Virus record (IMG/VR): IMGVR_UViG_2617270975_000008
DNA from: a virus
Lineage: Duplodnaviria; Heunggongvirae; Uroviricota; Caudoviricetes
Strand: one strand, 5' to 3'
DNA: 21,665 nucleotides
Part shown: positions 2,330 to 17,241 of the stretch, one piece after another
Layout of the letters: each line of letters begins with the position of its first letter
Position numbering within the stretch: position 1 is the stretch's first letter
Program-made: the position numbers and the translations under genes
The notes under the pieces: model-generated
What the model saw: the letters and a program-made list of their open reading frames with translations, nothing else
What the model was told of the DNA's origin: nothing
The model's database searches: none

Positions 2330-2339
2330 AGGTATCCTT

Positions 2340-2507
2340 TACCGGAATGGCAAAAGATACAGATCAACACACCTGTGAAGTTCCAATAACATTGATGGAG
2401 ATCACTGAATAACAAAATGAGTCAAAAGTGATCTCCATCGATGTTATTCAGCGATCTGTTCAAATGTTATTACCCGATCTCGATGGAAGTTATTGAGTGA
2501 TCTCCTT
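2340..2507. repeat. IS21-type subterminal repeat cluster (multiple direct and inverted copies of GATCTCC / GTTATT motifs)
   Basis: Seen directly: ggagatcactgaataac (2398-2414), gtgatctcc (2431-2439), gatgttattcagcgatct, aatgttattacccgatct, gaagttattgagtgatctcc (2486-2503). Confidence 0.6.
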
Positions 2508-2960
2508 TCATGAAAATACGCAACCGTCCTTAATCCACCAGCGAATCGCCTCACACGCTCCCCTGCGGTCACCAGCATTCAGCCGCTTATAAAACGTCGA
2601 CGGGAAACACTTACCGGGGCCAATGTTATAGGGACAGAATGACGCTATACCCGCTTTCTGTGGTTCGGTCAGTGGAACTTTAATATTGCGCTCCACCCAT
2701 GCCAGCGCCTTATCCCGTTCAATGGCATTAACCTGGTCGCATTTTTCCTTCGACAGTTTCATGCCCGGAATAACAGGTTTACCATCCACCATTGTGGCAC
2801 CGCGGCAGATGGTCCAGATACCCGCACCATCACGGTATGCCGTTGTGTGGTTACCTTCTTTTTCATCCAGAAACTGGTCGAGAATATCAGGCGCAGGCGC
2901 ACCGATGGCAATCAACGCCAGAACGGCAGCCGACAGGCCATATTTGATTTTGGTGTTCAT
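2508..2960 (-). CDS. R: Phage endolysin R (lysozyme, SAR-type signal-anchor N-terminus); C-terminus replaced by IS-derived codons (CVFS-stop)
   Basis: 150 aa; N-terminus MNTKIKYGLSAAVLALIAIGA matches the hydrophobic SAR segment of Stx-phage/P21-type lysozymes as recalled; conserved lysozyme core; reading frame runs into the IS repeat region after WWIKDG. Confidence 0.85.
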   Translation of the reverse strand: MNTKIKYGLSAAVLALIAIGAPAPDILDQFLDEKEGNHTTAYRDGAGIWTICRGATMVDGKPVIPGMKLSKEKCDQVNAIERDKALAWVERNIKVPLTEPQKAGIASFCPYNIGPGKCFPSTFYKRLNAGDRRGACEAIRWWIKDGCVFS

Positions 2961-3088
2961 GGATATTTATCAGGATTTATCGGTTCCGAATCCCTGGATA
3001 TGTTAAATCTTCAGCCCGCCAGCGGTAGGACACTGGCGTTTTTCCTGATGGCTGAAATATATCTGACAATTTCAGTAGAGGATTAACC

Positions 3089-3403
3089 ATGCATAACGAT
3101 CAACATAATTATGATTTATGCCTGCAAGCCATAAATGAGCGGGTAAAATCAGAGTGCCTCTTACTCCTCCCACAAGAACACGATGCAGTAAAATCCATTC
3201 AGGCTGAGCCGTATGGACATCTCACACCTGTGACTCTCGGCATTATCGCCAGAGCATTAACACAGCCCATGCTTATGCGTATTAAGACCAATATAAATAA
3301 CTGGTTGAATGAAGAATTAAGCTACCTTGATTGTGAGTGGGACAATCATTACGCAAAAACACAAAAAGAACGCATCTTCAGTCGATTATCCAGCAACAGA
3401 TAA
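3089..3403 (+). CDS. Hypothetical protein (104 aa), antisense to the late operon, inside the S-R insertion
   Basis: Strong SD (GAGGA, 7 nt before ATG); lower GC than backbone; no family recognised. Confidence 0.55.
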   Translation: MHNDQHNYDLCLQAINERVKSECLLLLPQEHDAVKSIQAEPYGHLTPVTLGIIARALTQPMLMRIKTNINNWLNEELSYLDCEWDNHYAKTQKERIFSRLSSNR

Positions 3404-3412
3404 CGAGCCACC

Positions 3413-4219
3413 TTATATACGCCCTTTCAGATAAGTCATCCCCGGCTGCATCCAGTCAACAGGTGCTTTCTTAAAGGGCGTATTATCAAAATCACGCAGA
3501 AGAGCCTCCAGCACAACTGCATCATTGTCAGCACCACTGGCCATCATTTCAATCTCAGCTGCTACCTGCAGATATCCCATGCAACGACCAATGCGCTTCA
3601 TCAGCCCCTGCTTTTTATTGTTCTTCAGGTAATCAATGGCAAATTCAATGAGCGCCTCACTATGCTGGTGCGATGGCGGTGTTAATTTCCCATTTTCTGA
3701 GATGGTTATTTTCCCGCCATCTCCGTATACAACAAAGGATGGCCGGTTACACTCCCATTCCTGATCTTTATCAGGTGCAGACGCAATAAAATAACGTTTA
3801 TTTCCTTCCTCTCCGGCACTTTTAACCGTAATGGAGTACTCAGACTGCAGACAAGACGCCTCTTTTTCTGACCGCAGTGTTGACGGCGGCATCTTCAGAG
3901 AACCAGTAATTCTTCCCGGTAGCTTTCCTTTGTAGGTTATCAACACATCCTGCGCCTCTAAAATTATGGGGCGCTTTTCCGGCAACGGTTCGTTCCCTTC
4001 ACATAACCCGGCAGCAACATCCATGAAAAACTGCTTCGCCTGCTTTTTCGCCTCAGCTTCGTAAAACTCCAGCGTGGCACCTTCAGTACGGTCAAGACTA
4101 ATCGCCACATTTGGCAACAACAGTGACGGATACCCACCAATTTCCAGTACCACAGTAACAGTAATCTTATCCGGGTAATTATTTATCCCTTTAACAACCA
4201 GTTCGTATTTTTTCTTCAT
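3413..4219 (-). CDS. Hypothetical protein (268 aa) inserted between holin and endolysin; expressed in the late operon
   Basis: ATG 5 nt after the S stop with GGGGAGAG SD; no TM segment or signal peptide evident; no family recognised. Confidence 0.65.
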   Translation of the reverse strand: MKKKYELVVKGINNYPDKITVTVVLEIGGYPSLLLPNVAISLDRTEGATLEFYEAEAKKQAKQFFMDVAAGLCEGNEPLPEKRPIILEAQDVLITYKGKLPGRITGSLKMPPSTLRSEKEASCLQSEYSITVKSAGEEGNKRYFIASAPDKDQEWECNRPSFVVYGDGGKITISENGKLTPPSHQHSEALIEFAIDYLKNNKKQGLMKRIGRCMGYLQVAAEIEMMASGADNDAVVLEALLRDFDNTPFKKAPVDWMQPGMTYLKGRI

Positions 4220-4223
4220 CGCT

Positions 4224-4439
4224 TTACTCTCCCCGCGCCGCCTTACGCCGGTCCTCTCTGATTTTGAAATACAGGTTAGTCAGATATGTCAGCAGCCCAA
4301 ACAGCAGACTCCCCAGCACGCCTATTGCCGCCCACTGAGACGGGGAAACCCTGTCCAGCAACTGCAGGAACCAGTAGCCCGTTCCCACCGCTGACGTGGT
4401 GTATGACACACCTGTTGTGATTTTTTCCATCTGGTACAT
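4224..4439 (-). CDS. S: Phage holin S (class with dual-start MYQMEK motif)
   Basis: [71 protein letters not shown] matches Stx-phage holin as recalled; two hydrophobic segments and charged C-tail. The 97-aa track ORF is an upstream extension. Confidence 0.85.
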
Positions 4440-4473
4440 ACCCCGTCTCCCGTTATCCGGAAGCTGACAACAA

Positions 4474-4503
4474 TAAAAAAAGCCACCAGTTAAGTACTGA
4501 TGG
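4474..4503 (-). terminator. Intrinsic terminator between nanS-p and S (hairpin gccaucag/cugguggc followed by U-run on minus-strand RNA)
   Basis: Plus strand aaaaaaagccaccagttaagtactgatggc; 8-bp stem with one G-U pair, A-run on plus strand gives U-tract on minus transcript. Confidence 0.5.
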
Positions 4504-4589
4504 CTCTGATAACTCATGCAGGCATCTCAGACGACCCACTGACACTACCGGTGAGTTTAACGATACCTTCCATTTGACTGGCTCACTTT

Positions 4590-6458
4590 TTATGATGATG
4601 CCGGTGCATTTATCTCCAGCACCAGACTTTCTATCTCAACGCCATACGCTGCATTTTTGGTAATATCCGTCAGCGTCAGCGCATTCAGCCCCAGTGTCAG
4701 ACTGTCTTTTATGACCTGGAATGCCGGGCCAGCCACTCCATTCAGTTTCGGAGTAACCGTGGCACTGCCGGCGGTGAACACCAGCTCCAGCGTCTGCCAG
4801 TCGTTACTGTAATTCCCGAACTCGCCCAACTTTGTGTTTCCGGCTTTCTTGTGATGCATCAGATTCAGTTTGCCGTCTGTGGTCTGGGTGAAGAACGACA
4901 TCAGGAACGGGTTACCAGTCCCGGTCATCGCCACGACGTCAGGTAACGCTACATCGGTATACAGATAAATTCCCAGACCGAACTGGTTGTTGGTCAGTGC
5001 GCCTGACAGTCGAAACTTACAGCTCAGTCTGCCACCCCGTGTCAGCAGGGAGACTGCGTCATCCACCGGATGCATCAGGGACCAGGTTTTATTGCTCTGC
5101 TTGGTAACCTTAAACACACCATCTTCCAGCGCAACACTGCCGCCGGTGATGGTCCAGCCCTGCGCAGCAGCCTCTCCGGCTGTCGGCAGCAGGGAGATTG
5201 TGCGAACGGACGTATCTGCAGACGGACCCGATGGCGTGTCGCCGCCGGGCGAGGGTTTGATTTCCGGTGCCTTACCACTGATGAAGGCTGAGGTGCGCCC
5301 GGCTACGTTCAGAATAGCAGTTGCCATACGATCGGGAATAATGCCACGACGCGCCCATGAGCTGAAATGCGTCGGGCGATTTGATGATACCCAGTTTTTG
5401 TTCGTTCGGGATGCCGAACCGTAATAACCAGACCCGGCAATATCAGGATCTTCTGACGGGTTGTTTGTCGGTGTATTAACTCCGCTACCATCGGTCATAA
5501 AGGGAACAAAATAAATCTGCTGGGATTCTTTACCTTTATATGCACCATATACCACTTCATATTGCGTACCGTGTTCTTGTTTCCACGCGTATGTCGTGTC
5601 GCCACAAATCCAGGGGACTGATGCCGGACTTCCACCGTGACACTGCGCTGCCAGCCCGGCAAGGTCAGCACGGAACTGCTGTACCATTGCAAGAAATGCT
5701 GCTGGCTGCTGGGCGTAACTGGCATTCGTCATATCGAATTCCCCCTGCATCCAGCATATCGCCAGCAAAACGTTTTTCGGGTTTTTCTGCAATGCTGCCT
5801 TCGTGCGGAAAAGCAGATCCTGATATAACGGCTTACCCACTCCCCAGCGAGCCGAATCCTGACTGGCCCCCGTGGACTCGCTGAATGTCCCCTCCGTGCC
5901 CTGGGTGAATGCCGAACCACCACGACAGCATGGTACCAGCAGGATCCCCGCATTATTAGGGATATACGGAAGCAGTTTTTTGGCAATATGTAAGCCCTGG
6001 CCGACACAGCCGTACTGCCCTTTGCTCAGGTCAGCCCGGGGATGGTTAATCGTACTCATATCCTGAACATCATGCAGACAATGGTCAGCAGGAATGATGT
6101 CGTTAAATACGCATACTTCACCACCGGGAGTCACTGTGTTACGACGGGCCAGTTGCTTAATGCGCGGATGGGGCGCATCGTATGAATCCGGAAGCGGAAG
6201 CCCTTCACCGTAAGCCATGGCATTGGACTGCCCGGCCAGTACGATGACGTAGTACCACTCCGGCTCAGTTGCACCACTGACGACCACATCACCTTCTGCT
6301 GCAATCGCCTGCATCAGGGTATAAGGGGTTATGGCCACCGGACTACCAAACGGCTGCCAGCCCTCTTTCAGTTTATGTGTCAGCTTTTCCGCAAGATCTG
6401 ACGGCGACGCCGCCCTGACAACATCATAGTGTTTAAATGCCATGGTTCTTTCCACCAT
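4590..6458 (-). CDS. nanS-p: NanS-p-like sialate O-acetylesterase (N-terminal DUF1737-like region, SASA/SGNH esterase domain, C-terminal carbohydrate-binding-like region)
   Basis: 622 aa; GQSN catalytic-serine motif (VIVLAGQSNAMAYG); position immediately upstream of holin S as in Stx phages. Confidence 0.7.
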   Translation of the reverse strand: MVERTMAFKHYDVVRAASPSDLAEKLTHKLKEGWQPFGSPVAITPYTLMQAIAAEGDVVVSGATEPEWYYVIVLAGQSNAMAYGEGLPLPDSYDAPHPRIKQLARRNTVTPGGEVCVFNDIIPADHCLHDVQDMSTINHPRADLSKGQYGCVGQGLHIAKKLLPYIPNNAGILLVPCCRGGSAFTQGTEGTFSESTGASQDSARWGVGKPLYQDLLFRTKAALQKNPKNVLLAICWMQGEFDMTNASYAQQPAAFLAMVQQFRADLAGLAAQCHGGSPASVPWICGDTTYAWKQEHGTQYEVVYGAYKGKESQQIYFVPFMTDGSGVNTPTNNPSEDPDIAGSGYYGSASRTNKNWVSSNRPTHFSSWARRGIIPDRMATAILNVAGRTSAFISGKAPEIKPSPGGDTPSGPSADTSVRTISLLPTAGEAAAQGWTITGGSVALEDGVFKVTKQSNKTWSLMHPVDDAVSLLTRGGRLSCKFRLSGALTNNQFGLGIYLYTDVALPDVVAMTGTGNPFLMSFFTQTTDGKLNLMHHKKAGNTKLGEFGNYSNDWQTLELVFTAGSATVTPKLNGVAGPAFQVIKDSLTLGLNALTLTDITKNAAYGVEIESLVLEINAPASS

Positions 6459-6636
6459 CTGAAAAATGATTCTTTAAAATACCTGACATGTAATACAGAA
6501 AAAACACAAAACCATACCTTAATTAAAAACCTCATCATCAAGCAGATATGCATGGATAAACTACAAGACGAGATATAAACCACCCTGCATTTAAATAAAC
6601 AATAAACAACATCAGAAAAATAATTCTGCTCTATGG

Positions 6637-6665
6637 TTTACAATCAAAAATATCATTTATACTTT
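6637..6665 (+). promoter_or_regulatory. Candidate sigma-70 promoter for ORF 6704-7039 (TTTACA, 17-nt spacer, TACTTT)
   Basis: Seen in sequence; motif match only. Confidence 0.35.
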
Positions 6666-6703
6666 TCAGAACATCACCAGCAAGGCATAAACAAGGAAAC
6701 TAA

Positions 6704-7039
6704 ATGAAGTGGATTGTGATTGATACAGTTATCCAGCCATCATGCGGAATATCTTTTTCAGTCATATGGAGTAAAATAAAATTAATAATCTGGTATCAAT
6801 CGGATGCTTTCTTACCTCCTGAAAGTATATTTACACTGACTCACACAGGCATCATGCTCAATAACAAAGTGCTGCCTGTAACCATTTACAACGTAGTACC
6901 ATTCAATAAAACATTCTGGAATTTAATCAAAAACAGCCAGGAATGCCCTACAAATACAGATAACGTATTGAATGAATGCTTTAATAACCGTTGCACTCTG
7001 CAAATATGTCCTTATGGGCTAAAACAACAAAGTCCATAA
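6704..7039 (+). CDS. Hypothetical Cys-containing protein (111 aa) in AT-rich cargo at the stx-equivalent locus
   Basis: AAGGAA SD 5-6 nt before ATG; long ORF in AT-rich DNA where stops are frequent; antisense to late operon. Confidence 0.5.
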
Positions 7040-7074
7040 GGAGTTTACTCACATCTGACAAAATCAATATAAAC

Positions 7075-7096
7075 AGCCCCTCCGGAGAGGGGCTGG
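7075..7096 (-). terminator. Stem-loop (cccctc cgga gagggg core) with U-rich tail on minus-strand RNA; candidate terminator
   Basis: Plus strand cagcccctccggagaggggctg preceded by aaaatcaatataaa, giving a T-rich tail after the hairpin on the minus strand. Confidence 0.4.
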
Positions 7097-7486
7097 AGAG
7101 TGGCGCTATGTGCCATTGCATGGTGCCGGGTGCCTCCCGGTGAATTCAGTACCAGCACCTGAATCCGCGATTATCCCATATACCTACTCGCTGATTGCCC
7201 CTCCGCACAGGGGGATTCACCATGCCAGTTTCTTTTAACAAACTCCCCGCAAACCAGACAACAGTCAACCGCCTGAATTGTGAAGTATTTAAAAATTTCT
7301 CCCGCTAACTGATACCCGGCTAACAGTCTGGCGTTTTCTTTTTCAGCAACGGGAAAGCAGCAACCACCACACCCGCCACCAGCACACCGTCAGCCAGCAC
7401 TGACATTATCCGGCTGCTGCAATGCCATTCACAAAAACAGTAAGCAATCACTTTTTACCGTAACCGGTGATAATCCAGATATGTAT

Positions 7487-7843
7487 CTACCCCAGATGAG
7501 TAATCCGAAGTTCATCCATACCACAGGTCCTGGCTATTCTGTTGTACTCCTGAACAAGAGCAAATAATTCTGAATTAGCCACCATGAACTCATCGCAAAC
7601 CCTCTGTATAGCATCACTATTCAGAATAATAACGTCTCTTCCCGAAAGACGATCAGGAGTACAGAACAAAACTGTCAAACGGCTGAAGGCCTTTGCTCGT
7701 TCTGCATTGACTATATCAATACGCTGCCTAAGGATGAAACACCCCGACGCCTCATCAATATTCACTCTACCCACACCATATGAATGATAAATATTTAATG
7801 CTGAAAAAACCATTAGACCGTATAACAAACACTCAATCAACAC
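7487..7843 (-). CDS. Hypothetical protein (118 aa from TTG; first ATG at residue 11) in cargo region
   Basis: ORF in AT-rich DNA, late-operon orientation; weak translation signals. Confidence 0.3.
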   Translation of the reverse strand: MLIECLLYGLMVFSALNIYHSYGVGRVNIDEASGCFILRQRIDIVNAERAKAFSRLTVLFCTPDRLSGRDVIILNSDAIQRVCDEFMVANSELFALVQEYNRIARTCGMDELRITHLG

Positions 7844-7950
7844 TTAACAGAACTTTTATTTTTGACAAACATATAATATTTTCAACAATATCCTGAGCCA
7901 GGTATATTTCAGTATAAGGCTCTGCCGAAAGGAATCTGGAAGAATGAATA

Positions 7951-8027
7951 TGGCGCGCTGTACTGGATTCGAACCAGTGACCGATTGCTTAGAAGGCAAT
8001 TGCTCTGTCCGGCTGAGCTAACAACGC
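7951..8027 (-). tRNA. argO: tRNA-Arg (anticodon UCU)
   Basis: Manual cloverleaf: acceptor GCGTTGT/ACAGCGC, anticodon stem ATTGC/GCAAT, loop CTTCTAA, T-loop TTCGAAT, CCA end. Confidence 0.85.
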
Positions 8028-8040
8028 ATGATGCAGATAA

Positions 8041-8117
8041 TGGACCGCCATCGGGGACTTGAACCCCGCGCAGCCAGCTTCGAAGGCTGGCGCTCTATCC
8101 CGATGAGCTAATGGCGG
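8041..8117 (-). tRNA. argN: tRNA-Arg (anticodon UCG)
   Basis: Manual cloverleaf: acceptor CCGCCAT/ATGGCGG, anticodon stem CCAGC/GCTGG, loop CTTCGAA, T-stem CGGGG/CCCCG, CCA end. Confidence 0.85.
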
Positions 8118-8124
8118 TATGTGA

Positions 8125-8200
8125 TGGTGGCCCTTGCTGGATTTGAACCAGCGACCTGGCGATTATGAGTCGCTCGCTCTCACCACTGAGCTAAAGGGCC
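8125..8200 (-). tRNA. ileZ: tRNA with CAU anticodon (Ile2 lysidine-type as in Stx-phage ileZ, or elongator Met)
   Basis: Manual cloverleaf: acceptor GGCCCTT/AAGGGCC, loop CTCATAA, T-stem GCTGG/CCAGC, CCA end; gene order Ile-Arg-Arg matches recalled Stx-phage ileZ-argN-argO. Confidence 0.8.
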
Positions 8201-8249
8201 GGAAGCAGAATAATAATGGTGCGTAATTAATTCTGCAATCTCATCCGTT

Positions 8250-9299
8250 TCAAACGATTAAATCCTGAACTTCCCTGACTGTCTGCTCAAAACGTCCGGT
8301 CTCCAGTTCAACGCCAATCGCACGACGCCCGAGCGCCAGTGCCGCTTTTACCGTTGAACCTGAGCCCATAAAAAAATCTGCAACCTGGTCTCCCGGACGA
8401 CTGCTTGCGCTGATTATCTGCTGCAGCATTTCTGCCGGTTTTTCGCACGGATGTTTCCCGGGATAGAACTGCACCGGTTTATGTGTCCACACATCCGTGT
8501 ACGGCACCTGCGCCGTCACACCAAAATACCGCCGCAGATGCTTATATTCACTCTGCAGCTCCACATACTGCCGGTTCAGTGACGTATACGTATCCACCAG
8601 CTGGTGGTGGGGCTTTTCCAGTTCACCGCGCTGATGTTTCTCTTCTGCCACCCGGGCAAACAGCGACTGTAATTTCAGATAATCGCTTTCGTTCGGTAGC
8701 TGCCACTGACTGGCACTGAACCAGTGCGACACCATGTTTTTCTTTCCTGTGGCATCTGCAATCTGTTTTGCCGTTATCCCCAGGGCCGCGCGCGCATCAC
8801 GAAAGTAAGAAATCAGCGGGGCCATCACATGCTGTTTCAGTGCACTGCCCTTCGCCGCATACCCGGCATCTTTCGGACGATACGGCCCCTGATAATGTTC
8901 CGCGAACAGAATGCGCTCTGTGGCGGGGAAATACGCCCGCAGGCTTTCCTTGTTGCATCCGTTCCAGCGTCCGGACGGCTTCGCCCAGATAATATGGTTC
9001 AGCACACTGAAGCGTTCACGCATCATGATTTCGATATCAGATGCCAGGCGATGACCACAGAACAGGTAAAGACTTCCGACAGGTTTCAGCACCCGCCAGA
9101 ACTGCGCCAGACACTGGTCCAGCCACTTCAGGTAATCATCGTCGCCCTTCCACTGGTTATCCCAGCCCTCAGGCTTCACTTTAAAGTACGGCGGGTCCGT
9201 GACTATCAGGTCAACAGAATTTTCGGGTAACGACCGGATAAATTCCAGGCAGTCGGCGTTGATTAACTCACAACTGGATATTTTTACAGTATTAAGCAT
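8250..9299 (-). CDS. Orphan DNA methyltransferase (beta-class N6-adenine or N4-cytosine; DPPY then FxGxG order)
   Basis: 349 aa; IVTDPPYF near N-terminus, FFMGSGSTVKAALALGRR near C-terminus; no adjacent restriction endonuclease ORF. Confidence 0.8.
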   Translation of the reverse strand: MLNTVKISSCELINADCLEFIRSLPENSVDLIVTDPPYFKVKPEGWDNQWKGDDDYLKWLDQCLAQFWRVLKPVGSLYLFCGHRLASDIEIMMRERFSVLNHIIWAKPSGRWNGCNKESLRAYFPATERILFAEHYQGPYRPKDAGYAAKGSALKQHVMAPLISYFRDARAALGITAKQIADATGKKNMVSHWFSASQWQLPNESDYLKLQSLFARVAEEKHQRGELEKPHHQLVDTYTSLNRQYVELQSEYKHLRRYFGVTAQVPYTDVWTHKPVQFYPGKHPCEKPAEMLQQIISASSRPGDQVADFFMGSGSTVKAALALGRRAIGVELETGRFEQTVREVQDLIV

Positions 9300-9391
9300 G
9301 GATCATTAAGCCTGTCTCTGATAGGCTCATTCTGCTTTTGCGCAAAGCAGTGGGCCTGAGGTGTGCTTGTGAACCCAACGCATGAGCAGAT

Positions 9392-9422
9392 GGCTGGTGG
9401 GTGCCCCTAACACCCACCAGCC
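9392..9422. repeat. Perfect 12-bp-stem palindrome (ggctggtgggtg / cacccaccagcc, 7-nt loop)
   Basis: Seen directly; no U-tract on either strand, so not a canonical intrinsic terminator. Confidence 0.6.
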
Positions 9423-9435
9423 GCCCATTTACCAC

Positions 9436-9463
9436 AAATAAAAAAGCCTTCACTGCGGAAGGC
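9436..9463 (-). terminator. Intrinsic terminator (gccttc actgcg gaaggc hairpin plus U-run on minus strand)
   Basis: Plus strand aaataaaaaagccttcactgcggaaggc; overlaps the stop of the small ORF 9450-9647. Confidence 0.55.
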
Positions 9464-9647
9464 GTCTGTAACAACCGAACTGATAGTCTGCCAGACCCGC
9501 CATAACCAGCTGGGTCAGTATTAACTGGCAGCGTTCGCGTGAAAGGTAAGTATTCTGCGCAATCTCCCCGACTGTCGCCGGGTCGTTAACGCTTAATTCA
9601 TTAAACACCACTCTGGCGGTTTCTGTCATATCCTGCTGTTTTAGCAT
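9450..9647 (-). CDS. Small hypothetical late-operon protein (65 aa from ATG; 94 aa if GTG start at 9734)
   Basis: ORF downstream of tR'; weak SD (AAGGG). Confidence 0.35.
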   Translation of the reverse strand: MLKQQDMTETARVVFNELSVNDPATVGEIAQNTYLSRERCQLILTQLVMAGLADYQFGCYRRLPQ

Positions 9648-9765
9648 GTCTTTTTCCCTTTTCCGGTTAACGTGACACACCAATAACTCTTGTCGAAAAA
9701 GCCAGCAAGCTGAAAGACAGGTATTCACCGCCACCAGCGCGTTTACTGTACTGACGCGATTTCAG

Positions 9766-9792
9766 TCATAAAAAACCCGCCAGGCGGCGGGG
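9766..9792 (-). terminator. Candidate tR' terminator downstream of pR' (cccgcc aggc ggcggg hairpin plus UUUUUU)
   Basis: Plus strand cataaaaaacccgccaggcggcgggg; strong GC stem and 6-U tract on minus-strand RNA, about 50 nt downstream of the candidate late promoter. Confidence 0.65.
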
Positions 9793-9840
9793 TGTAAAAA
9801 ATCTTCTAACGTCAGGCATAAAACGCCCATCGTTAGAGCA

Positions 9841-9868
9841 AATTTACCACAGATTCGGGAAAAATCAA
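9841..9868 (-). promoter_or_regulatory. Candidate late promoter pR' (TTGATT, 16-nt spacer, TAAATT) just after the Q stop
   Basis: Motifs on minus strand; position between Q-like gene and terminator as in lambdoid phages. Confidence 0.45.
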
Positions 9869-9873
9869 CAACA

Positions 9874-10695
9874 CTATCGCGTTACCCTCTTTAACTGCCG
9901 CTCCGCCCATGCCTCTTCAATGTCAAACCGAACCACCAACGTATCGTAAAAGCGTTTCACTGATTTTTTCCACGTATCAAGCGTGATAGCACTCGTCACT
10001 TTGCATATGGCATTAAATGCCTCCGTTGATGGCAGCCTTTCACAGCCACGACCACCACAACGCTGGCAATCTCTGATAACAGGCATACCACGTTTTACCG
10101 ACTCTTCACGATGAATGGCGACACCACGCCCACGGCAATCCTTACAGGCGGTGGAAACCTCACCCTTTCCGCCACACTCCGGACAGGCAACTTTTACCAC
10201 CTCCCTGACTTTTTTCCATTCTTCCCAGTAAGACGGATACACGCCTTTTGTGCACTTTGCCCACACTGGTGGCTTACCATCCGGATACTGGATCTTGTTT
10301 GTAAAAACCTCGCTTTCAATAAATTTTTTTCCGTGACAGCAGGGGCACTGTTTTTTGCTCGCCGCGCTACGGGCATAATCTTCAAACGCATACGAAGCCA
10401 TAATGCGCATCACTACCGGTTTTATTTCTGCCGGAAGTTTTCTCAACGCCGCCACACGATCGCACCGACTGAGTGCATAATCTGCCAGTAATTCTGTTGC
10501 CCGCGCCCTGTCATTCATACTGATGCCCATTTTCCCCAGGAACGCAGAAAACCCCATCTCAGCCCGATTCTGTGTCATGCCCTGCGCGGCCATCACATCA
10601 GTGATACTCAGCGCATCTTTTGACGTTGAGGCCGATGCATCGGTCAGGCCAGGGGATTTTGGGGAGTAGTATTTCGGTAAATCTTCCAGTTTCAT
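9874..10695 (-). CDS. Candidate late antiterminator Q (QuuQ-like by position) carrying four DnaJ-type CxxCxGxG zinc-finger repeats
   Basis: 273 aa; CPCCHGKK, CPECGGKG, CKDCRGRG, CQRCGGRG repeats; sits between rusA and the pR'/tR' signals; ATGA overlap with rusA. Family assignment is inferred, not recognised by sequence. Confidence 0.5.
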   Translation of the reverse strand: MKLEDLPKYYSPKSPGLTDASASTSKDALSITDVMAAQGMTQNRAEMGFSAFLGKMGISMNDRARATELLADYALSRCDRVAALRKLPAEIKPVVMRIMASYAFEDYARSAASKKQCPCCHGKKFIESEVFTNKIQYPDGKPPVWAKCTKGVYPSYWEEWKKVREVVKVACPECGGKGEVSTACKDCRGRGVAIHREESVKRGMPVIRDCQRCGGRGCERLPSTEAFNAICKVTSAITLDTWKKSVKRFYDTLVVRFDIEEAWAERQLKRVTR

Positions 10696-12480: not shown

Positions 12481-12507
12481 AAAAAACAAAACCCGCCGAA
12501 GCGGGTT
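12481..12507 (-). terminator. Intrinsic terminator downstream of hokD (aacccgc cgaa gcgggtt plus U-run)
   Basis: Plus strand aaaaaacaaaacccgccgaagcgggtt. Confidence 0.65.
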
Positions 12508-12574
12508 AAGTGCGGGTGCGTTGAGGATGCCTGACACATCAGAGGTGGCGAGGGATTCTCCCCCGCCTGGTCTC

Positions 12575-12730
12575 TTACTCCTCAGGTTCGTAAGCTGTGA
12601 AGACAGCGACCTCCGTCTGGCCGGTTCGGATTCGTACCTCGCAGAGGTCTTTCCTCGTTACCAGTGCCGTCACAATGACGGTTAAACAGATGACGATCAG
12701 GGCGATTAGCATCGCCTTTTGCTGCTTCAT
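12575..12730 (-). CDS. hokD: Hok/Gef-family membrane toxin HokD (RelF), 51 aa
   Basis: Hand translation gives MKQQKAMLIALIVICLTVIVTALVTRKDLCEVRIRTGQTEVAVFTAYEPEE; below the 60-aa track cut-off; AGGAGAAG SD. Confidence 0.9.
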   Translation of the reverse strand: MKQQKAMLIALIVICLTVIVTALVTRKDLCEVRIRTGQTEVAVFTAYEPEE

Positions 12731-12801
12731 AGCCTGCTTCTCCTGTCAACGCAAAGCAGAAGTGTCACCTTCGGTGCGAAACAGAGATGTCATGCTTTGG
12801 T

Positions 12802-13089
12802 TCAGAGAATGCGTTTGACCGCCTCGCTATATACTTCCGAGCGTTCTCTTTTCCCAACAGAAATCACGAAAACGACAACTTTCTCGTCTATAACCTGGTA
12901 TACAAGGCGATAGCCTGAAGACCGGAGCTTAATCTTGTAACAATCAGGCATACCACGGAGCTTGTTTGCTTCAATCCGGGGTGACTCAAGTACTTCAACC
13001 AGCTTCTTTTTCAACTGTTCACGTACCGTCGAGCCCAGCTTTCGCCATTCCTTTAGTGCCCGCTCGTCAAAATCCAGAAAATACGCCAT
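12802..13089 (-). CDS. relE: RelE mRNA interferase toxin
   Basis: 95 aa, MAYFLDFDERALKEWRKLG...; matches K-12 RelE as recalled. Confidence 0.95.
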   Translation of the reverse strand: MAYFLDFDERALKEWRKLGSTVREQLKKKLVEVLESPRIEANKLRGMPDCYKIKLRSSGYRLVYQVIDEKVVVFVISVGKRERSEVYSEAVKRIL

Positions 13090-13328
13090 CAGAGTTCATC
13101 CAGCGTCACACGTACTGGCTTAGGATTACGAAGCCGTTCTTTCACTATCTCCACAAGTTCAGCATCTTCATCACTCAGGAGTGTCTGTTTGAACGGCAAG
13201 CGTTCATTGTCAGCGATATACTCGAGCATGAGACGAAGCGCTTCAGAAGGAGTTACACCCATTTTTTCAAGCGCGGCGTAAGAACGCGCTTTAAGTTCAT
13301 CGTCAATACGCAGGTTAATGCTACCCAT
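13089..13328 (-). CDS. relB: RelB antitoxin
   Basis: 79 aa, MGSINLRIDDELKARSYAALEKMGVTPSEALRLM...; overlaps relE start. Confidence 0.95.
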   Translation of the reverse strand: MGSINLRIDDELKARSYAALEKMGVTPSEALRLMLEYIADNERLPFKQTLLSDEDAELVEIVKERLRNPKPVRVTLDEL

Positions 13329-13340
13329 GTCTTACACCTC

Positions 13341-13364
13341 TTGTAATTACAAATGTCATTACAA
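13341..13364. promoter_or_regulatory. relBE operator-like palindromic TTGTAAT repeats upstream of relB
   Basis: ttgtaattacaa followed by atgtcattacaa, immediately upstream of the relB SD. Confidence 0.6.
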
Positions 13365-13658
13365 GTATCGCACTACAACATGCTTAGGGCAAGTCACGAA
13401 GGAAGTCAGAAAGTAGTCGTAAGAACGGTGATCACTGTCCGCTTTGTGCCAGGAGCAGCCATTGCTAAGTCCATCCTGTATTGTGCAGGTCAGCTCATTT
13501 TTAAAGAGTCCGGCCATCATCTTACTGGTACAGACACCATATACTTTGTGACGGTCAGGCTACATATGCACAACTCAACTTATTCATCTATTTTTTGCTT
13601 TAGCATGTCAGTGTTGCTTTCTCGTCGGCGGGTGAGCGGTGACCTGACCTGTCGATAA
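13353..13658 (+). CDS. YdfV-like small ORF (101 aa), possibly non-coding
   Basis: Length and position between relB and flxA match recalled K-12 ydfV; overlaps the relBE regulatory region; no clear RBS. Confidence 0.25.
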   Translation: MSLQVSHYNMLRASHEGSQKVVVRTVITVRFVPGAAIAKSILYCAGQLIFKESGHHLTGTDTIYFVTVRLHMHNSTYSSIFCFSMSVLLSRRRVSGDLTCR

Positions 13659-13810
13659 AGGAACGTAGCACGTTTTATGCAACACCCGCATGCGGCAGAA
13701 AATTATTGCCGAACGTTTACCCCTGTCAACAAGCTTTACTTTCTGAGGCGCGCCAGCCCGCTAGGAAAACAATCTGAACATCAAACAATTAATGACACAA
13801 GAAATACGAT

Positions 13811-13837
13811 TAAAGATTTTTTTGTGCATGCCGATAG
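13811..13837 (+). promoter_or_regulatory. Sigma-28 (FliA) promoter of flxA: TAAAGATT, 11 nt, GCCGATAG
   Basis: Close match to the TAAAGTTT-N11-GCCGATAA consensus. Confidence 0.75.
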
Positions 13838-13860
13838 TGCTTTTTTAAAAGGAGAAATCT

Positions 13861-14193
13861 ATGTCTGTCACAATTCAGGGAAATACCTCAACCGTTATTT
13901 CAAACAACTCCGCCCCGGAAGGAACATCAGAAATAGCCAAAATCACAAGACAAATTCAGGTGCTGACTGAAAAGCTTGGGAAAATCTCATCGGAAGAGGG
14001 GATGACGACACAGCAGAAAAAAGAAATGGCTGCATTGGTACAGAAGCAAATTGAAAGCCTCAGGGCTCAACTGGAGCAGTTGTTAAGGCAGCAGGCAGAG
14101 AAAAAGAATGAAGACGCGACAGTTCAGCCTGATAAAAAAGAAGAGAAAAAAGACGATACAAATACCGCTGGCACCATTGATATTTACGTCTAA
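13861..14193 (+). CDS. flxA: FlxA (FliA-regulated protein), coiled-coil-rich
   Basis: 110 aa, MSVTIQGNTSTVISNNSAPEG...; GGAGAAATCT SD. Confidence 0.85.
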   Translation: MSVTIQGNTSTVISNNSAPEGTSEIAKITRQIQVLTEKLGKISSEEGMTTQQKKEMAALVQKQIESLRAQLEQLLRQQAEKKNEDATVQPDKKEEKKDDTNTAGTIDIYV

Positions 14194-14207
14194 GTGACAG
14201 CCGTATT

Positions 14208-14230
14208 GTGGCCCTCATCGGGCCACTTTT
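14208..14230 (+). terminator. Intrinsic terminator after flxA (gtggccc tcatc gggccac tttt)
   Basis: Perfect 7-bp GC-rich stem plus T-run. Confidence 0.75.
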
Positions 14231-14280
14231 CGCCATCAGCCTTTTCTTTAAAGACATATTATCTTTGTATCATTTCTGAT

Positions 14281-16157
14281 AGTTAACATTACAAGATATA
14301 AGTAATGGACGCACTCCCAATTAGTCTATTTAAATCGCCACGAGTTTAACTGACAACCCATGATCAATTATGAATTGCAACTATTTCTGTAGTCACTTTT
14401 GTGGGGACAGTCCACAAAACTGCCAACTTCCGCTTCTTGCTCTTAGCGGACATTAGCATAGGCTATTTACCATAACGCCTCATTACGCGCACCGCCCAGA
14501 CTGACTCAGCGCGTTTCTGGCATATCCCCAGTAAAACAAGTAACAAACCACCCGAAAATGAACACCAGAAACGCGACTTAAGAATCTACCCTATGAATGG
14601 ATATGCACTCAACCGAATCGATCTTGGTTTCAATCTTTTTTATCGGGATCAGGCTTCTTTTTAGGTAACTTCGGGGGCTTAACTTGCTGATGACTTTGCG
14701 TTCGGCGCGTAAGCCAGGGATGGTCAGCTTTAGGTTTAACATAGTATTTTGAGCGTAAATCAATACGGGCATTATCCACTCGTTCATGGACACTCTTTTC
14801 ATCATCCAGTGGTATAGGCTCCGGGCCATCAACATACTTTTCCCAGCCCAGCGCTTTCCCGTCATACAGAACGTTAATTTCACCGTCAAAGTTCTCGCAT
14901 ACAGTAACAACCGAATGCCTAAGTCGATATCCCCGGCTCTCACTGCGTACCTGAAACGCACTGCTTTTGTACTGGAAAGTGAGATTTTTAGACAGAACGC
15001 GCTTCGCCTGTAGGCTGAAGATATAACCCAGTTCCTCTTCAGAATGGTGCACATCAAGATGAGCATTATCAGTAGTACGAGGCGACGTAGCGAACCGGTT
15101 GTTATAGGCTTCAATAAAGGTCGGCAACCATGCATTTGCTGTTTCAATATCACTGATATTCTGAAGCCGCATTTCTTTGACCAGCCTGTCCTGTAGTGTC
15201 TGATTGGCGCGCTCTACCCGCCCTTTTGCCTGCGGGCTGTTGGCATGGATTGGCTCGATGCCCAGTGTCTTTATCGCACGAGTGAACTGGGTCAGCTCAC
15301 CTTCCCGCTCTGGGTTATTTACCCTGAATATACTGTGTCTATCAGAGTAGAGAGCGAGCGGTACGCCATGATCATTAAGGTAACCCCGGAGGGTTTCCAT
15401 GTAAGCCCGGGTTGTTTCAGCAGGCACAAAACGCAACGCCATCAACGCACTGGTGGCATCATCAATGAAAACGATCAGTGTACATCTGGGGCCTCGATTT
15501 TCAAACCAGTCATGAGGTGAGCCATCAATCTGGATCAGTTCACCGTAAGATGGTCGTCGCATGCGGCGTTGATATATACGGGCAATTTTACGGCGGCGTT
15601 CACGCCATAACCCCTCTTCTATCATCCACTTTCTGAGAGTTTCAACGGATAAAGATAAACCGTGTATCTCGCGCAATTTTTCGCACGCAAACGTAGGTCC
15701 AAAATCAGCGTAACGGCCTTTGAGGAGTGAAATTACTGTTGCTCTGAATTCAGTAGAAAAGGAATTATTAGGACGCTTTCCACGTCGGTGGGAAACCAGA
15801 CCAGAAGGCCCTTCATTTCTATACCGTTGCACCAGACGTTTAACCTGCCGAATAGAAATGCCAATGCGTGCCGCAGCTTGTTCCTGAGTAATATGTCGAT
15901 TAATTGACTCCTGAATAATCTGAAGTCGGTGGAGTTCCTTATGACTCATCGTAACAGTCTCTTTGATCATGAAAAATCCCCCAGAGAATTGTCTGGGGAC
16001 ATTTTAGAATGGTTCAAAGGGGACATTACAGCTTGGTGTTAACACATAGCCTGCTTCTCCTTGCCTTTCGGCACGTAAGAGGCTAACCTACGTGTGTAGA
16101 GCATAGATATGGCCTCAGATTAATGTTAAGCGTCTTGCCGGACGCGTAATGTTAACT
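14281..16157 (-). mobile_element. Candidate insertion sequence carrying a single DDE (rve-type) transposase; 12-bp inverted repeats AGTTAACATTAC; family uncertain (IS481-like architecture)
   Basis: Exact 12-bp inverted match at 14281-14292 and 16146-16157 flanking the transposase; extra TAATGTTAA and TGGGGACA subterminal copies; no target-site duplication found. Confidence 0.45.
14630..15970 (-). CDS. DDE transposase (N-terminal HTH, rve integrase core; IS481-like)
   Basis: 446 aa; HTH ITQEQAAARIGISIRQVKRL; DDE triad candidates in IQIDGSPHDWF, LYSDRHSIF, KGRVERANQTLQ; basic C-tail. Confidence 0.8.
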   Translation of the reverse strand: MIKETVTMSHKELHRLQIIQESINRHITQEQAAARIGISIRQVKRLVQRYRNEGPSGLVSHRRGKRPNNSFSTEFRATVISLLKGRYADFGPTFACEKLREIHGLSLSVETLRKWMIEEGLWRERRRKIARIYQRRMRRPSYGELIQIDGSPHDWFENRGPRCTLIVFIDDATSALMALRFVPAETTRAYMETLRGYLNDHGVPLALYSDRHSIFRVNNPEREGELTQFTRAIKTLGIEPIHANSPQAKGRVERANQTLQDRLVKEMRLQNISDIETANAWLPTFIEAYNNRFATSPRTTDNAHLDVHHSEEELGYIFSLQAKRVLSKNLTFQYKSSAFQVRSESRGYRLRHSVVTVCENFDGEINVLYDGKALGWEKYVDGPEPIPLDDEKSVHERVDNARIDLRSKYYVKPKADHPWLTRRTQSHQQVKPPKLPKKKPDPDKKD

Positions 16158-16258
16158 GGGGCTTTTCTCTATCTGCCTTTTGGTGTTCATGCCTGAGACA
16201 GATAGCCTCAAGCACCCGCTGCAATTCTACTTAACTCTCCTTTTCCCGCAAACCGTTT

Positions 16259-16342
16259 TTATCCCCAGCGGCAAATCGAATACACCACCAGCGCCACCGC
16301 CATCGCAATTCCTACCGTTGTTAATGCTTCAGGCCAGCTCAT
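16259..16342 (-). CDS. Candidate 27-aa hydrophobic peptide (MSWPEALTTVGIAMAVALVVYSICRWG) coupled to the DUF551 gene stop
   Basis: AGGAGG 8 nt upstream of an ATG that overlaps the upstream TGA (ATGA); single predicted TM-like segment; below ORF cut-off. Confidence 0.3.
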   Translation of the reverse strand: MSWPEALTTVGIAMAVALVVYSICRWG

Positions 16343-17241
16343 TGATTCACCTCCTGCGGCGGTTCTGGTAGCGGCATCCAGTGTGACGGTTTCCACGACG
16401 CACCAGGAATTATCCACCCATCATTAGCGTCAGGATGCCCGGGGATGTAAGTAGCCCATTTCATTCGCCAGTCACCTTTCCTGTCAAACTCCACGGCAAC
16501 AAGAACGGCTGTTTTGGTATTCGGCATTCGCTCACTACAGCTTATCCAACCATCCGGAGTTGCCGGAGAGTTGCCCGATAGTGCATTCTGCTCCAGTGAT
16601 GCTTTTACAAACCACGCTGCCTGAACTATAACGCCATGAATCCAGCGCAAATCAGCATCGCGATCTTTCTTTTTCATCTTTTCGCCACTTAAGGCCTTGC
16701 TTATGTGGCTGCGTACCAGGTCTTCATGTAATTCCTTCGCCTCCTCAATGGTGAAACCACCAGGCAGAAGAGCCGGAGTTACCGGAGAGCTGGTTGACGC
16801 TTCCGGGATTTCCCGAAAATTATTGGTTGACGAATTCTTGCTTTCCCGAAAGTTTCCGGACTGAAGCATGGCGGTGCGGCAGGCGTTCCATATTTCGGCA
16901 GCAATATCGCGCTCGCTATCGGTTAATTTGTACGTGGAAACATAGCCAGAGAGCATTTCTACGTTTTCCGGAGTTGCTTCTTCCGGCACTACCGGCGCTG
17001 GCGGGGCGATGCGTCCAAGCAACTTATTTACCTCTTTCGCCATCGCGTCATATTTATCTAAATGGCGATTAGCTTCTAAGCAGACTCGGCGCATCTGATC
17101 TGAGTTAACTCGTTTAACTGGATCTGCTTCCAGCGATGCCAGCGCAATCCGTGCCAGTTCCATTTGTTCACCACGGGTAAGCCCGTTTTCAAGCGGATTT
17201 TTAATGAACAATTCAATACGTTCTTTGGTAATAGTGGTCAT
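16339..17241 (-). CDS. Prophage protein with C-terminal DUF551-like domain
   Basis: 300 aa; AAGGAG SD; C-terminal region (WISCSERMP...WMPLPEPP) resembles DUF551 as recalled. Confidence 0.55.
   Translation of the reverse strand: MTTITKERIELFIKNPLENGLTRGEQMELARIALASLEADPVKRVNSDQMRRVCLEANRHLDKYDAMAKEVNKLLGRIAPPAPVVPEEATPENVEMLSGYVSTYKLTDSERDIAAEIWNACRTAMLQSGNFRESKNSSTNNFREIPEASTSSPVTPALLPGGFTIEEAKELHEDLVRSHISKALSGEKMKKKDRDADLRWIHGVIVQAAWFVKASLEQNALSGNSPATPDGWISCSERMPNTKTAVLVAVEFDRKGDWRMKWATYIPGHPDANDGWIIPGASWKPSHWMPLPEPPQEVNQ

Follow-up and report, generated by a model that had tools for sequence, protein, structure and literature searches.

A relBE-bearing element related to ISEsa1 probably inserted as a transposon at the hokD start site of a lambdoid prophage

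Where does a mobile element end when only its transposase gene is plain to see? This question is raised by a 21,665-nucleotide stretch of DNA from a virus of the Caudoviricetes (IMG/VR record IMGVR_UViG_2617270975_000008; hereafter the window, meaning the whole stretch), in which a gene for a 446-residue, rve-type transposase lies as one intact open reading frame (ORF) in a prophage region, between flxA and a DUF551 gene. A preliminary description recognized this gene, correctly, as part of a mobile element, and took the element to be an IS481-like insertion sequence of about 1.88 kb (14281–16157) bounded by an exact 12-bp inverted repeat. We found different ends and different contents. The segment 12744–16044 is very probably a 3301-bp, passenger-carrying transposon of the IS1202 family that inserted in hokD, a gene for a type I toxin in a lambdoid (Qin-like) prophage; its passengers are the toxin–antitoxin genes relBE, the 'ydfV' ORF, and flxA.

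The ends were set by comparison with an empty site. Strain SCU-123 carries a related prophage with an uninterrupted hokD locus (L001), of which positions 1260–1517 match window 12488–12744 at 98% identity and positions 1501–1798 match window 16045–16342 at 99.7% identity. The two halves overlap by 16–17 nt and are split by 3.3 kb in the window; thus, the hok locus was interrupted by the element. The 16-mer CATAGCCTGCTTCTCC occurs exactly twice in the window, at 12728 and at 16045, and once in the empty site, at 1501. Comparison with an uninterrupted copy had been suggested in the preliminary description as a way to define the ends, and it placed them at 12744 and 16044. The same description had reported no target-site duplication, which holds for the ends it proposed and does not hold for the true ends, where the 16-bp duplication stands. 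In the window, the base that follows the duplication, a T in both places (12744 and 16061), could be assigned either way; in 14 of 14 related junctions an A follows GTTGAC, even where the target base differs, which indicates that the element ends in ...GTTGACA and that the duplication in the window is 16 bp long.

The interruption parted hokD from its own 5' regulatory region and placed it directly downstream of relE. Both the hok toxin ORF and the sok leader were detected in the window, 3.3 kb apart, and the Rfam sok model (RF01794; 115 bits against a cutoff of 59) matches 16045–16217 over model positions 1–157, stopping exactly at the junction. Window 16045–16250 also matches Escherichia coli loci that are annotated as hokD and have no transposase. 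In a search of the non-coding parts for known RNA families (Rfam, E up to 0.1), sok was the only match, and it lies outside the element.

The element is bounded by imperfect terminal inverted repeats, which we call IRR (transposase-distal) and IRL (transposase-proximal). Both begin with 5'-TGT (TGTTAACACC... and TGTCAACGCA...), so that the tips read TGT/ACA (TGTCAAC... at 12744 and ...GTTAACA at 16044), and a second (A/G)ATGTC motif lies 24 bp inside each end (TGTC at 12786–12794 on the IRR side; AATGTCCCC at 15995–16003 of the plus strand on the IRL side). The terminal 20 nt of IRR are identical in 11 loci, with one or two differences in L022 and L035, and about 16 loci agree fully over the first 20 nt of IRL. 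In at least seven loci of other species, DNA homology to the window breaks off precisely at 16044.

What, then, of the 12-bp repeat? AGTTAACATTAC is present at 14281–14292 and its exact reverse complement at 16146–16157, as are the subterminal GGGGACA copies (at about 14403, 15995, and 16019), the hairpin, and the flxA and DUF551 flanks listed in the preliminary description. In the window, eight or nine different inverted pairs match perfectly over 12 bp or more at a spacing of 800–3000 bp, against about three expected at random, and a pair of this kind would enclose a particular ORF, within 500-bp flanks, with a probability of about 1.3%; the repeat was thus a reasonable lead. The transposase also has weak IS481-like features, with 132 bits to the IS481 equivalog model (NF033577) and 18.2 bits to Pfam LZ_Tnp_IS481, which a 1.88-kb IS481-like insertion sequence that had lost its target duplication could call on. 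Both scores are below their cutoffs (224 and 22.2 bits), however, and the arms do not behave as ends: the right arm falls inside the sok match, is present in the element-free locus L001, and is lacking next to an element of 99.8% identity carried by a Salmonella plasmid (L159), while neither arm occurs in nine related elements. The preliminary description had named conservation of the match in other copies as one test of its proposal, and such conservation was absent. Homology between copies in differing contexts stops at 16044 and 12744, never at 16157 or 14281. We give a 1.88-kb element with these ends virtually no chance; the repeat is coincidental, one arm lying in cargo DNA and the other in the sok region outside the element. 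The roughly 600 bp of non-coding DNA that had seemed unusual for a simple insertion sequence is made up of cargo (14293–14429), a 200-bp module (14430–14629), the 74-bp proximal end (15971–16044), and 113 bp of hok/sok DNA outside the element (16045–16157).

The transposase itself points away from IS481. A domain search found N-terminal HTH_28/29/32 domains (helix-turn-helix, HTH) and an rve_3 integrase core, and the NCBIfam ISNCY_2 equivalog (NF033594) matched residues 17–377 with 466.4 bits against a cutoff of 250. RefSeq labels the protein "IS1202-like element ISEsa1 family". The IS1202 family is defined by an HTH domain and a DDE domain; in the latter, two additional D residues are conserved between D1 and D2, and a Q stands at E+7 (Siguier et al. 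preprint). The motifs IQIDGS (146), FIDDAT (168), LYSDRH (207), and GRVERANQTLQ (250), which we read off the sequence and not off a family alignment, supply the signature D, DD, D, E with Q at E+7 and so agree with this definition. Judged from its sequence, the transposase belongs unambiguously to the IS1202 family and not to IS481. It is 100% identical to a copy in Shigella flexneri (L014) and differs by one residue from a copy on a Klebsiella michiganensis plasmid (L004). The hairpin next to its start is, on the transposase strand, a terminator-like match with eight pairs. Many E. coli copies at the window's site (e.g. H112–H122, and also IMG/VR viral contigs) are 3274 bp long versus 3301 bp; in these the transposase region aligns in two pieces, is 27 bp shorter, and carries the RefSeq label 'ISNCY family transposase', not 'ISEsa1 family', so that they may be an in-frame deletion variant of the transposase.

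Read from the transposase end, the order of parts is IRL, transposase gene, 200-bp module, variable cargo, relBE module, and IRR. The antitoxin gene relB lies directly upstream of relE and overlaps it at position 13089, as in a relBE type II toxin–antitoxin module. Comparison with elements that carry other cargo divides the unit into two conserved blocks: 12744–13456 (IRR, relE, relB, and the DNA upstream of relB), which is 98–99% identical, and about 14435–16044 (200 bp, transposase gene, and IRL; 1610 bp), which is about 91% identical. The DNA upstream of relB (13329–13456) is presumably the relBE promoter/operator. The 'ydfV' ORF begins in the conserved block and crosses the junction between module and cargo at about 13456; elements with other cargo keep the same first 33 or so residues and then have a different tail, and ydfV is probably not a real gene. 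Expression of flxA is FliA-dependent. With 3301 bp, relE, relB, flxA, and another annotated ORF, the unit goes beyond a simple insertion sequence (1.3–2 kb, transposase the sole gene).

In the 200-bp module that follows the transposase gene, a 12-bp stem (14511–14522 / 14563–14574) is nearly invariant and TTATGGTAAAT is invariant; the module ends sharply where the cargo starts and includes an IRL-like motif in direct orientation at about 14446–14472. An Rfam search of the module gave no family match, and RNAalifold returned the 12-bp stem with nearly all pairs invariant, hence no covariation signal. The module may serve as a binding site for the transposase inside the element, as a regulatory site, or as a junction at which cargo is exchanged. 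Two other candidates were considered. A small ORF in 14430–14629, a hydrophobic peptide-like frame, was rejected, being broken by a 2-nt indel in related elements; a vestigial distal end just past the transposase stop (about 14556–14580, AACACCA) was not supported, as it matches IRL weakly and homology runs on to about 14430. In Citrobacter portucalensis (L018, 7478–8672) a 29-bp stretch of the module (window 14465–14493) is repeated on either side of a 1.1-kb insert; it resembled a nested insertion sequence, an idea that we dropped because the insert holds only small ORFs and no obvious transposase.

Related units stand whole in other contexts. A scan of one genome per species yielded 78 loci, of which L005–L011, L015, L020, L022, L035, and L073 hold elements of 2575–7320 bp that have these IRL and IRR sequences as their ends, each with its own 15–16-bp duplication (e.g. 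CCAGGCGGTACAGTAT, TACCAAAACAAGCCCC, and CATTAAGCTGCAAAT); overall, relatives span 2.6–7.7 kb. The identical 3301-bp unit (99.8%, flxA included) sits in a pndA-type hok locus of an IncI Salmonella plasmid, flanked by TGGAGGGGCTATGAT. Other units differ in cargo. L015 carries a CDF cation-efflux pump and a cytochrome b561; L005 and L007 carry cargo of the L015 type together with ORFs that, from their N-termini only, resemble IS110- and IS30-type transposases; and L019 carries LysR, TauE, and a thioesterase. In L035 (Scandinavium hiltneri, element 5927–10201, 80% transposase identity) the cargo is GrpB and an acetyltransferase, and a TacA antitoxin / GNAT toxin pair stands next to IRR in place of relBE. 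A toxin–antitoxin module at the IRR end may therefore be a general design feature. Sequences belonging to the element family were detected in 889 plasmid records, the majority of them Klebsiella and Enterobacter plasmids.

Two further junctions were seen among these relatives. In L019 (about 7540–7570) and in a metagenome IRL flank reading 'gcgttgacaGGAGAAAAAGGCTAT', IRR and IRL stand head to tail with about 10–15 nt between them, which fits re-use of the duplicated target (tandem insertions) or, possibly, a junction intermediate. In L015 (5837–5950) the IRL flank of a non-hok insertion matches the Rfam family isrO, an Hfq-binding small RNA, with 58.8 bits against a cutoff of 42, and this element may have interrupted or abutted a small RNA gene.

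These relatives bear on how the unit relates to ISEsa1 of Cronobacter sakazakii (ISNCY/IS1202 group), whose name RefSeq gives to the transposase. ISEsa1 is listed as 1609 bp long with inverted repeats of 15/22, a 439-residue transposase, and no target duplication "when multiple examples were examined", and the tree in the same study groups it with ISCARN112 in a separate no-duplication subgroup (2023 Microbial Genomics paper). The conserved transposase block of the window is 1610 bp long, and translation from Met8, which removes 7 of the 446 residues, gives 439. Thus, the mobile unit might be only the block of about 1.6 kb at 14435–16044, that is, ISEsa1 as listed, with relBE, ydfV, and flxA mere neighbours and the 16-bp repeat of other origin; some plasmids have the transposase block without the relBE block in the same record (H45). 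We consider this very unlikely for the following reasons: No inverted copy of IRL lies near 14435, where the sole IRL-like motif is in direct orientation. In at least 10 independent contexts the duplications bracket transposase, cargo, toxin–antitoxin module, and IRR together, and not the 1.6-kb block. The far end has its homologue in the true distal end of simple relatives, as described below. Finally, the reported lack of a duplication for ISEsa1 is expected from a mis-set distal boundary. Where ISEsa1 is listed as a 1.6-kb, single-gene insertion sequence without a duplication, the element in the window is 3.3 kb long and has another distal end, duplications of the 15–16-bp class, a toxin–antitoxin module, and cargo. 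We infer that the catalogued ISEsa1 corresponds to the transposase-proximal block 14435–16044 only, and that it shows no duplication because the true distal end lies beyond the cargo.

The relatives also reveal a recurrent target. In the window and in six other distinct, mutually divergent loci the sok model runs right up to IRL, and the flank in L011 is hokE-like (MLTKYALV...). Metagenomes scanned for IRL yielded 37 distinct flanks, of which about 27 read ...GCAAGGAG..., and the hok Shine–Dalgarno region is GGCAAGGAG...ATG. Among 41 clustered insertion sites, 16 start with a Shine–Dalgarno-like GGAG/GGAT and 15 have a GC[AG]A motif that ends 15–17 nt from IRL, where by our estimate about one would be expected at random. 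Around 40% of distinct insertion sites are at a hok ribosome-binding site/start codon, and the GCAA/GCGA motif is common to the non-hok sites (L007, L035, L016, and several metagenome sites).

Such a distribution might instead descend from one ancient insertion that spread among hok paralogues by homologous recombination or gene conversion. The hok loci are multi-copy and related, and recombination between elements does happen: in one IMG/VR genome (2534681836), two copies in two hok loci (L140 and L158) have exchanged flanks, with IRL beside a pndA-type flank and IRR beside a hokD flank, which indicates recombination between the copies. As a general explanation we find it unlikely, since the two duplicated copies agree within each site and differ between sites, and the cut shifts by 1–3 nt relative to the ATG; together, these features indicate independent transposition. 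In addition, relBE and the ends are 98–99% identical, whereas the hok sequences around them have diverged much further (hokD, hokE-like, and pndA-like types), and the GC[AG]A motif recurs at sites that are not hok. We conclude that the element family inserted independently at these sites. In L018 (5897–5926), IRL abuts the coding side of hok (flank ...CATGGCCTTCTTCTCC), the opposite orientation to all other hok insertions; this could have come from either a reverse insertion or an inversion.

How does the locus of E. coli K-12, known for its relB-relE-hokD operon, fit this picture? K-12 strains match the window over 12482–14814 only. Their locus reads hokD, IRR, relE, relB, ydfV, flxA, the last 165 bp of the transposase gene, and then ydfX and dicC, and the K-12 ydfW protein is the last 49 residues of the transposase (window 14630–14779). 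K-12 thus carries the same insertion after a deletion from 14815 rightwards, with ydfW as a transposase stub; the deletion removed IRL and the sok/mok region. The co-transcription unit relB-relE-hokD (Gotfredsen and Gerdes 1998, as quoted in a later text), or relBEF operon, would owe its existence to the insertion, whose duplication restored the ribosome-binding site and ATG of hokD immediately beyond IRR.

A different origin has been put forward for this operon, in which relBE entered hokD alone as a minimal transferred operon and the transposase came separately (Ramisetty and Santhosh 2016, as represented in later citations). Later papers from the Ramisetty group describe an integration of relBE into hokD and an origin of relBE from plasmids, with the toxin–antitoxin operon (promoter and ORFs) as the unit of transfer. 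This account seems to us highly improbable for the present locus: a single 16-bp duplication brackets relBE and the transposase together, relBE is followed by the canonical family end IRR, and relBE is paired with this transposase at many unrelated sites and in many species. Joint arrival of relBE and the transposase in one transposon is the reading we retain.

The counts in E. coli, taken over 5426 complete genomes, were as follows: the hokD/IRR junction in 1165, the IRL/sok junction in 687, a near-full transposase gene in 790, and an uninterrupted hokD-type site in 4008.

From these comparisons we propose the following sequence of events. The HTH–DDE transposase, which may still be active, would bind the imperfect 26-bp ends and the second AATGTCCCC-like motif 24 bp inside each end, and would join the element, by cut-and-paste or copy-paste chemistry, to a target cut with a 15–16-bp stagger, giving the duplication. 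The window copy inserted in the Shine–Dalgarno/start-codon region of hokD. Because the duplication holds GGAG...ATG, hokD keeps its translation signals; it now lies directly downstream of relE, with the sok/mok control region stranded 3.3 kb away beyond IRL. The relBE pair would most likely serve as an addiction module that stabilizes the element or its host replicon, and flxA would be a hitch-hiker.

Beyond the window, we lean, with some reserve, towards a broader statement: ISEsa1-type transposases would drive an undescribed family of toxin–antitoxin-anchored cargo transposons (2.6–7.7 kb, with relBE, or in one case tacAT, by IRR), widespread on enterobacterial plasmids and prophages, making 15–16-bp duplications and preferring a GCAAGGAG-type hok ribosome-binding site/start codon; one such event would have created the relB-relE-hokD operon of K-12 and its ydfW, ydfV, and flxA neighbourhood, and the ISfinder entry would be only the proximal part. 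Several observations weigh against our explanation of the window element. The median is one copy per E. coli genome, almost all at this one site; no transposition was observed, and the window copy may have been passed on vertically or together with the prophage and is not necessarily active. The hok preference could be due in part to which insertions survive and not to where the transposase cuts. Some duplications are short or imperfect (14 bp in L011, 13 bp in L022, two mismatches in L073), and the length is either 15 or 16 bp: most sister copies at the window's site read GGCTAT/TGTTAAC (15 bp), and the window, with GGCTATG/TGTTAAC (16 bp), differs from this majority by a 1-bp indel. A 3301-bp copy of the flxA type at a non-hok site (L113; IMGVR_UViG_2912051188_000002, about 1345–4645) has only a 6-bp repeat (CGCCTT, after CAA), from either an adjacent deletion or an atypical insertion. 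Finally, the equation of ISEsa1 with 14435–16044 is drawn from agreement in length and in the 439 residues, not in sequence.

Both the element and its transposase are widespread and have been annotated before. New, it seems, are the placing of the boundaries, the anchored toxin–antitoxin module with its cargo slot, the preference for hok start sites, and the explanation of relBEF and ydfW in K-12. In the literature searched we found nothing that links ISEsa1 with relB, relE, or hok, although an earlier description outside that literature is possible, and no text in it names both hokD and sokD. The consequences, if the proposal is right, would be several. The classic relBE of E. coli would be a transposon passenger and not a free-standing 'minimal mobile operon', and several oddities of K-12 would be accounted for: a hokD without sok/mok that is co-transcribed with relBE, the ydfW stub, the ydfV ORF across a junction, and flxA as cargo. 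The catalogue entry for ISEsa1, which together with ISCARN112 defines a 'no duplication' subgroup, would need correction, as a duplication appears at the true distal end. A sequence-specific target, the hok translation-initiation region, is testable and could serve for site-directed insertion, and on hundreds of plasmids from Klebsiella and Enterobacter, metal-efflux genes and other cargo travel in this same vehicle.

Table 1. Coordinates of the element, its parts, and its surroundings in the window
Feature	Position	Strand	Remarks
hokD coding sequence, target gene	12575–12730	-	51 aa; Pfam HOK_GEF 82.9 bits
Target-site duplication, copy 1, CATAGCCTGCTTCTCC (reverse complement GGAGAAGCAGGCTATG)	12728–12743		holds hokD Shine–Dalgarno and ATG
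IRR, transposase-distal terminal inverted repeat, TGTCAACGCAAAGCAGAAGTGTCACC	12744–12769	+	19/26 positions match the other end
relE toxin gene	12802–13089	-	95 aa; adjoins IRR; Pfam ParE_toxin 51 bits; RefSeq relE
relB antitoxin gene	13089–13328	-	79 aa; Pfam RelB 112 bits
Conserved region upstream of relB	13329–13456		last part of IRR-side module; homology to other-cargo elements stops at about 13452–13458
'ydfV' ORF	13353–13658	+	no Pfam family match
Variable cargo segment	13457–14429		rest of 'ydfV' ORF, flxA, left arm of 12-bp repeat (14281–14292)
flxA	13861–14193	+	Pfam FlxA 54.7 bits
Conserved non-coding module downstream of transposase gene	14430–14629	-	conserved where element DNA is only about 70–91% identical
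Transposase gene, assigned to IS1202 family, ISEsa1 type	14630–15970	-	446 aa, single ORF
Hairpin, TCCCCAGA-CAATTC-TCTGGGGG then ATTTTTC	15978–15999	-	directly 5' of transposase ATG; overlaps inner AATGTCCCC repeat
IRL, transposase-proximal terminal inverted repeat, TGTTAACACCAAGCTGTAATGTCCCC	16019–16044	-	19/26 positions match IRR
Target-site duplication, copy 2, CATAGCCTGCTTCTCC	16045–16060		abuts IRL
5' regulatory region of hokD, now orphaned (antisense RNA sok, start of mok)	16045–16217	-	outside element
DUF551 gene	16339–17241		flanks region opposite flxA

Members of the IS1202 family are 1.3–2 kb long, only five of them carry a passenger gene (one each, labelled hypothetical), and their duplications fall into three length classes (Siguier et al. 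preprint); the only targeting described in the family is that of Xer sites by the 5-bp subgroup, and no hok preference has been described. With the ISTde1 subgroup the window element shares an HTH–DDE transposase with the extra D residues and Q at E+7, TGT ends, imperfect repeats of about 24–26 bp, and duplications in the 15–17-bp class (16 bp in the window, and 15–16 bp at about 10 other sites and in eight Hahella copies). That subgroup differs in having a single ORF in 1.3–2 kb; we compare with it by description, and the published tree sets ISEsa1 apart.

Among the closest known systems is a simple 1449-bp insertion sequence in Hahella sp. SMD15-11, with 62% transposase identity and at least 10 copies in one genome. 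Its ends TGTTAGCCCAAAGCTGTAATGTCCCC and TGTCAACCCAATTCTAAAATGTCCCC (TGTTAGCCC... / ...GGGTTGACA) are homologous to IRL and IRR of the window, with the IRL end 84% conserved, and the two elements share the asymmetry of TGTTAA/GC at the proximal and TGTCAAC at the distal end. Because IRR is homologous to the Hahella distal end, the relBE-side end is the genuine distal end of this lineage of insertion sequences. Eight Hahella copies have 15–16-bp duplications, often with CAA just 5' of the duplication, in the position that GC[AG]A takes at the other insertion sites. Unlike the window element, the Hahella element has neither cargo nor a toxin–antitoxin module, and none of the eight flanks examined looked hok-like, a point that was tested no further.

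Toxin–antitoxin modules reportedly occur inside Tn3-family transposons as well, where a type II pair is said to be a conserved part of the transposon beside the transposition functions and is presumed to stabilize the element or replicon. Those transposons are replicative, with a resolvase and 5-bp duplications, and keep the module by the transposase/resolvase genes, whereas here it lies at the far end, by IRR. In E. coli K-12, IS150 and IS186 are said to lie near hokA, hokC, and hokE, so that hok loci reportedly host, again and again, insertion sequences that disturb their regulation. These belong to other families and are said to lie downstream of hok, whereas the window element sits at the hok ribosome-binding site/ATG, which its duplication rebuilt.

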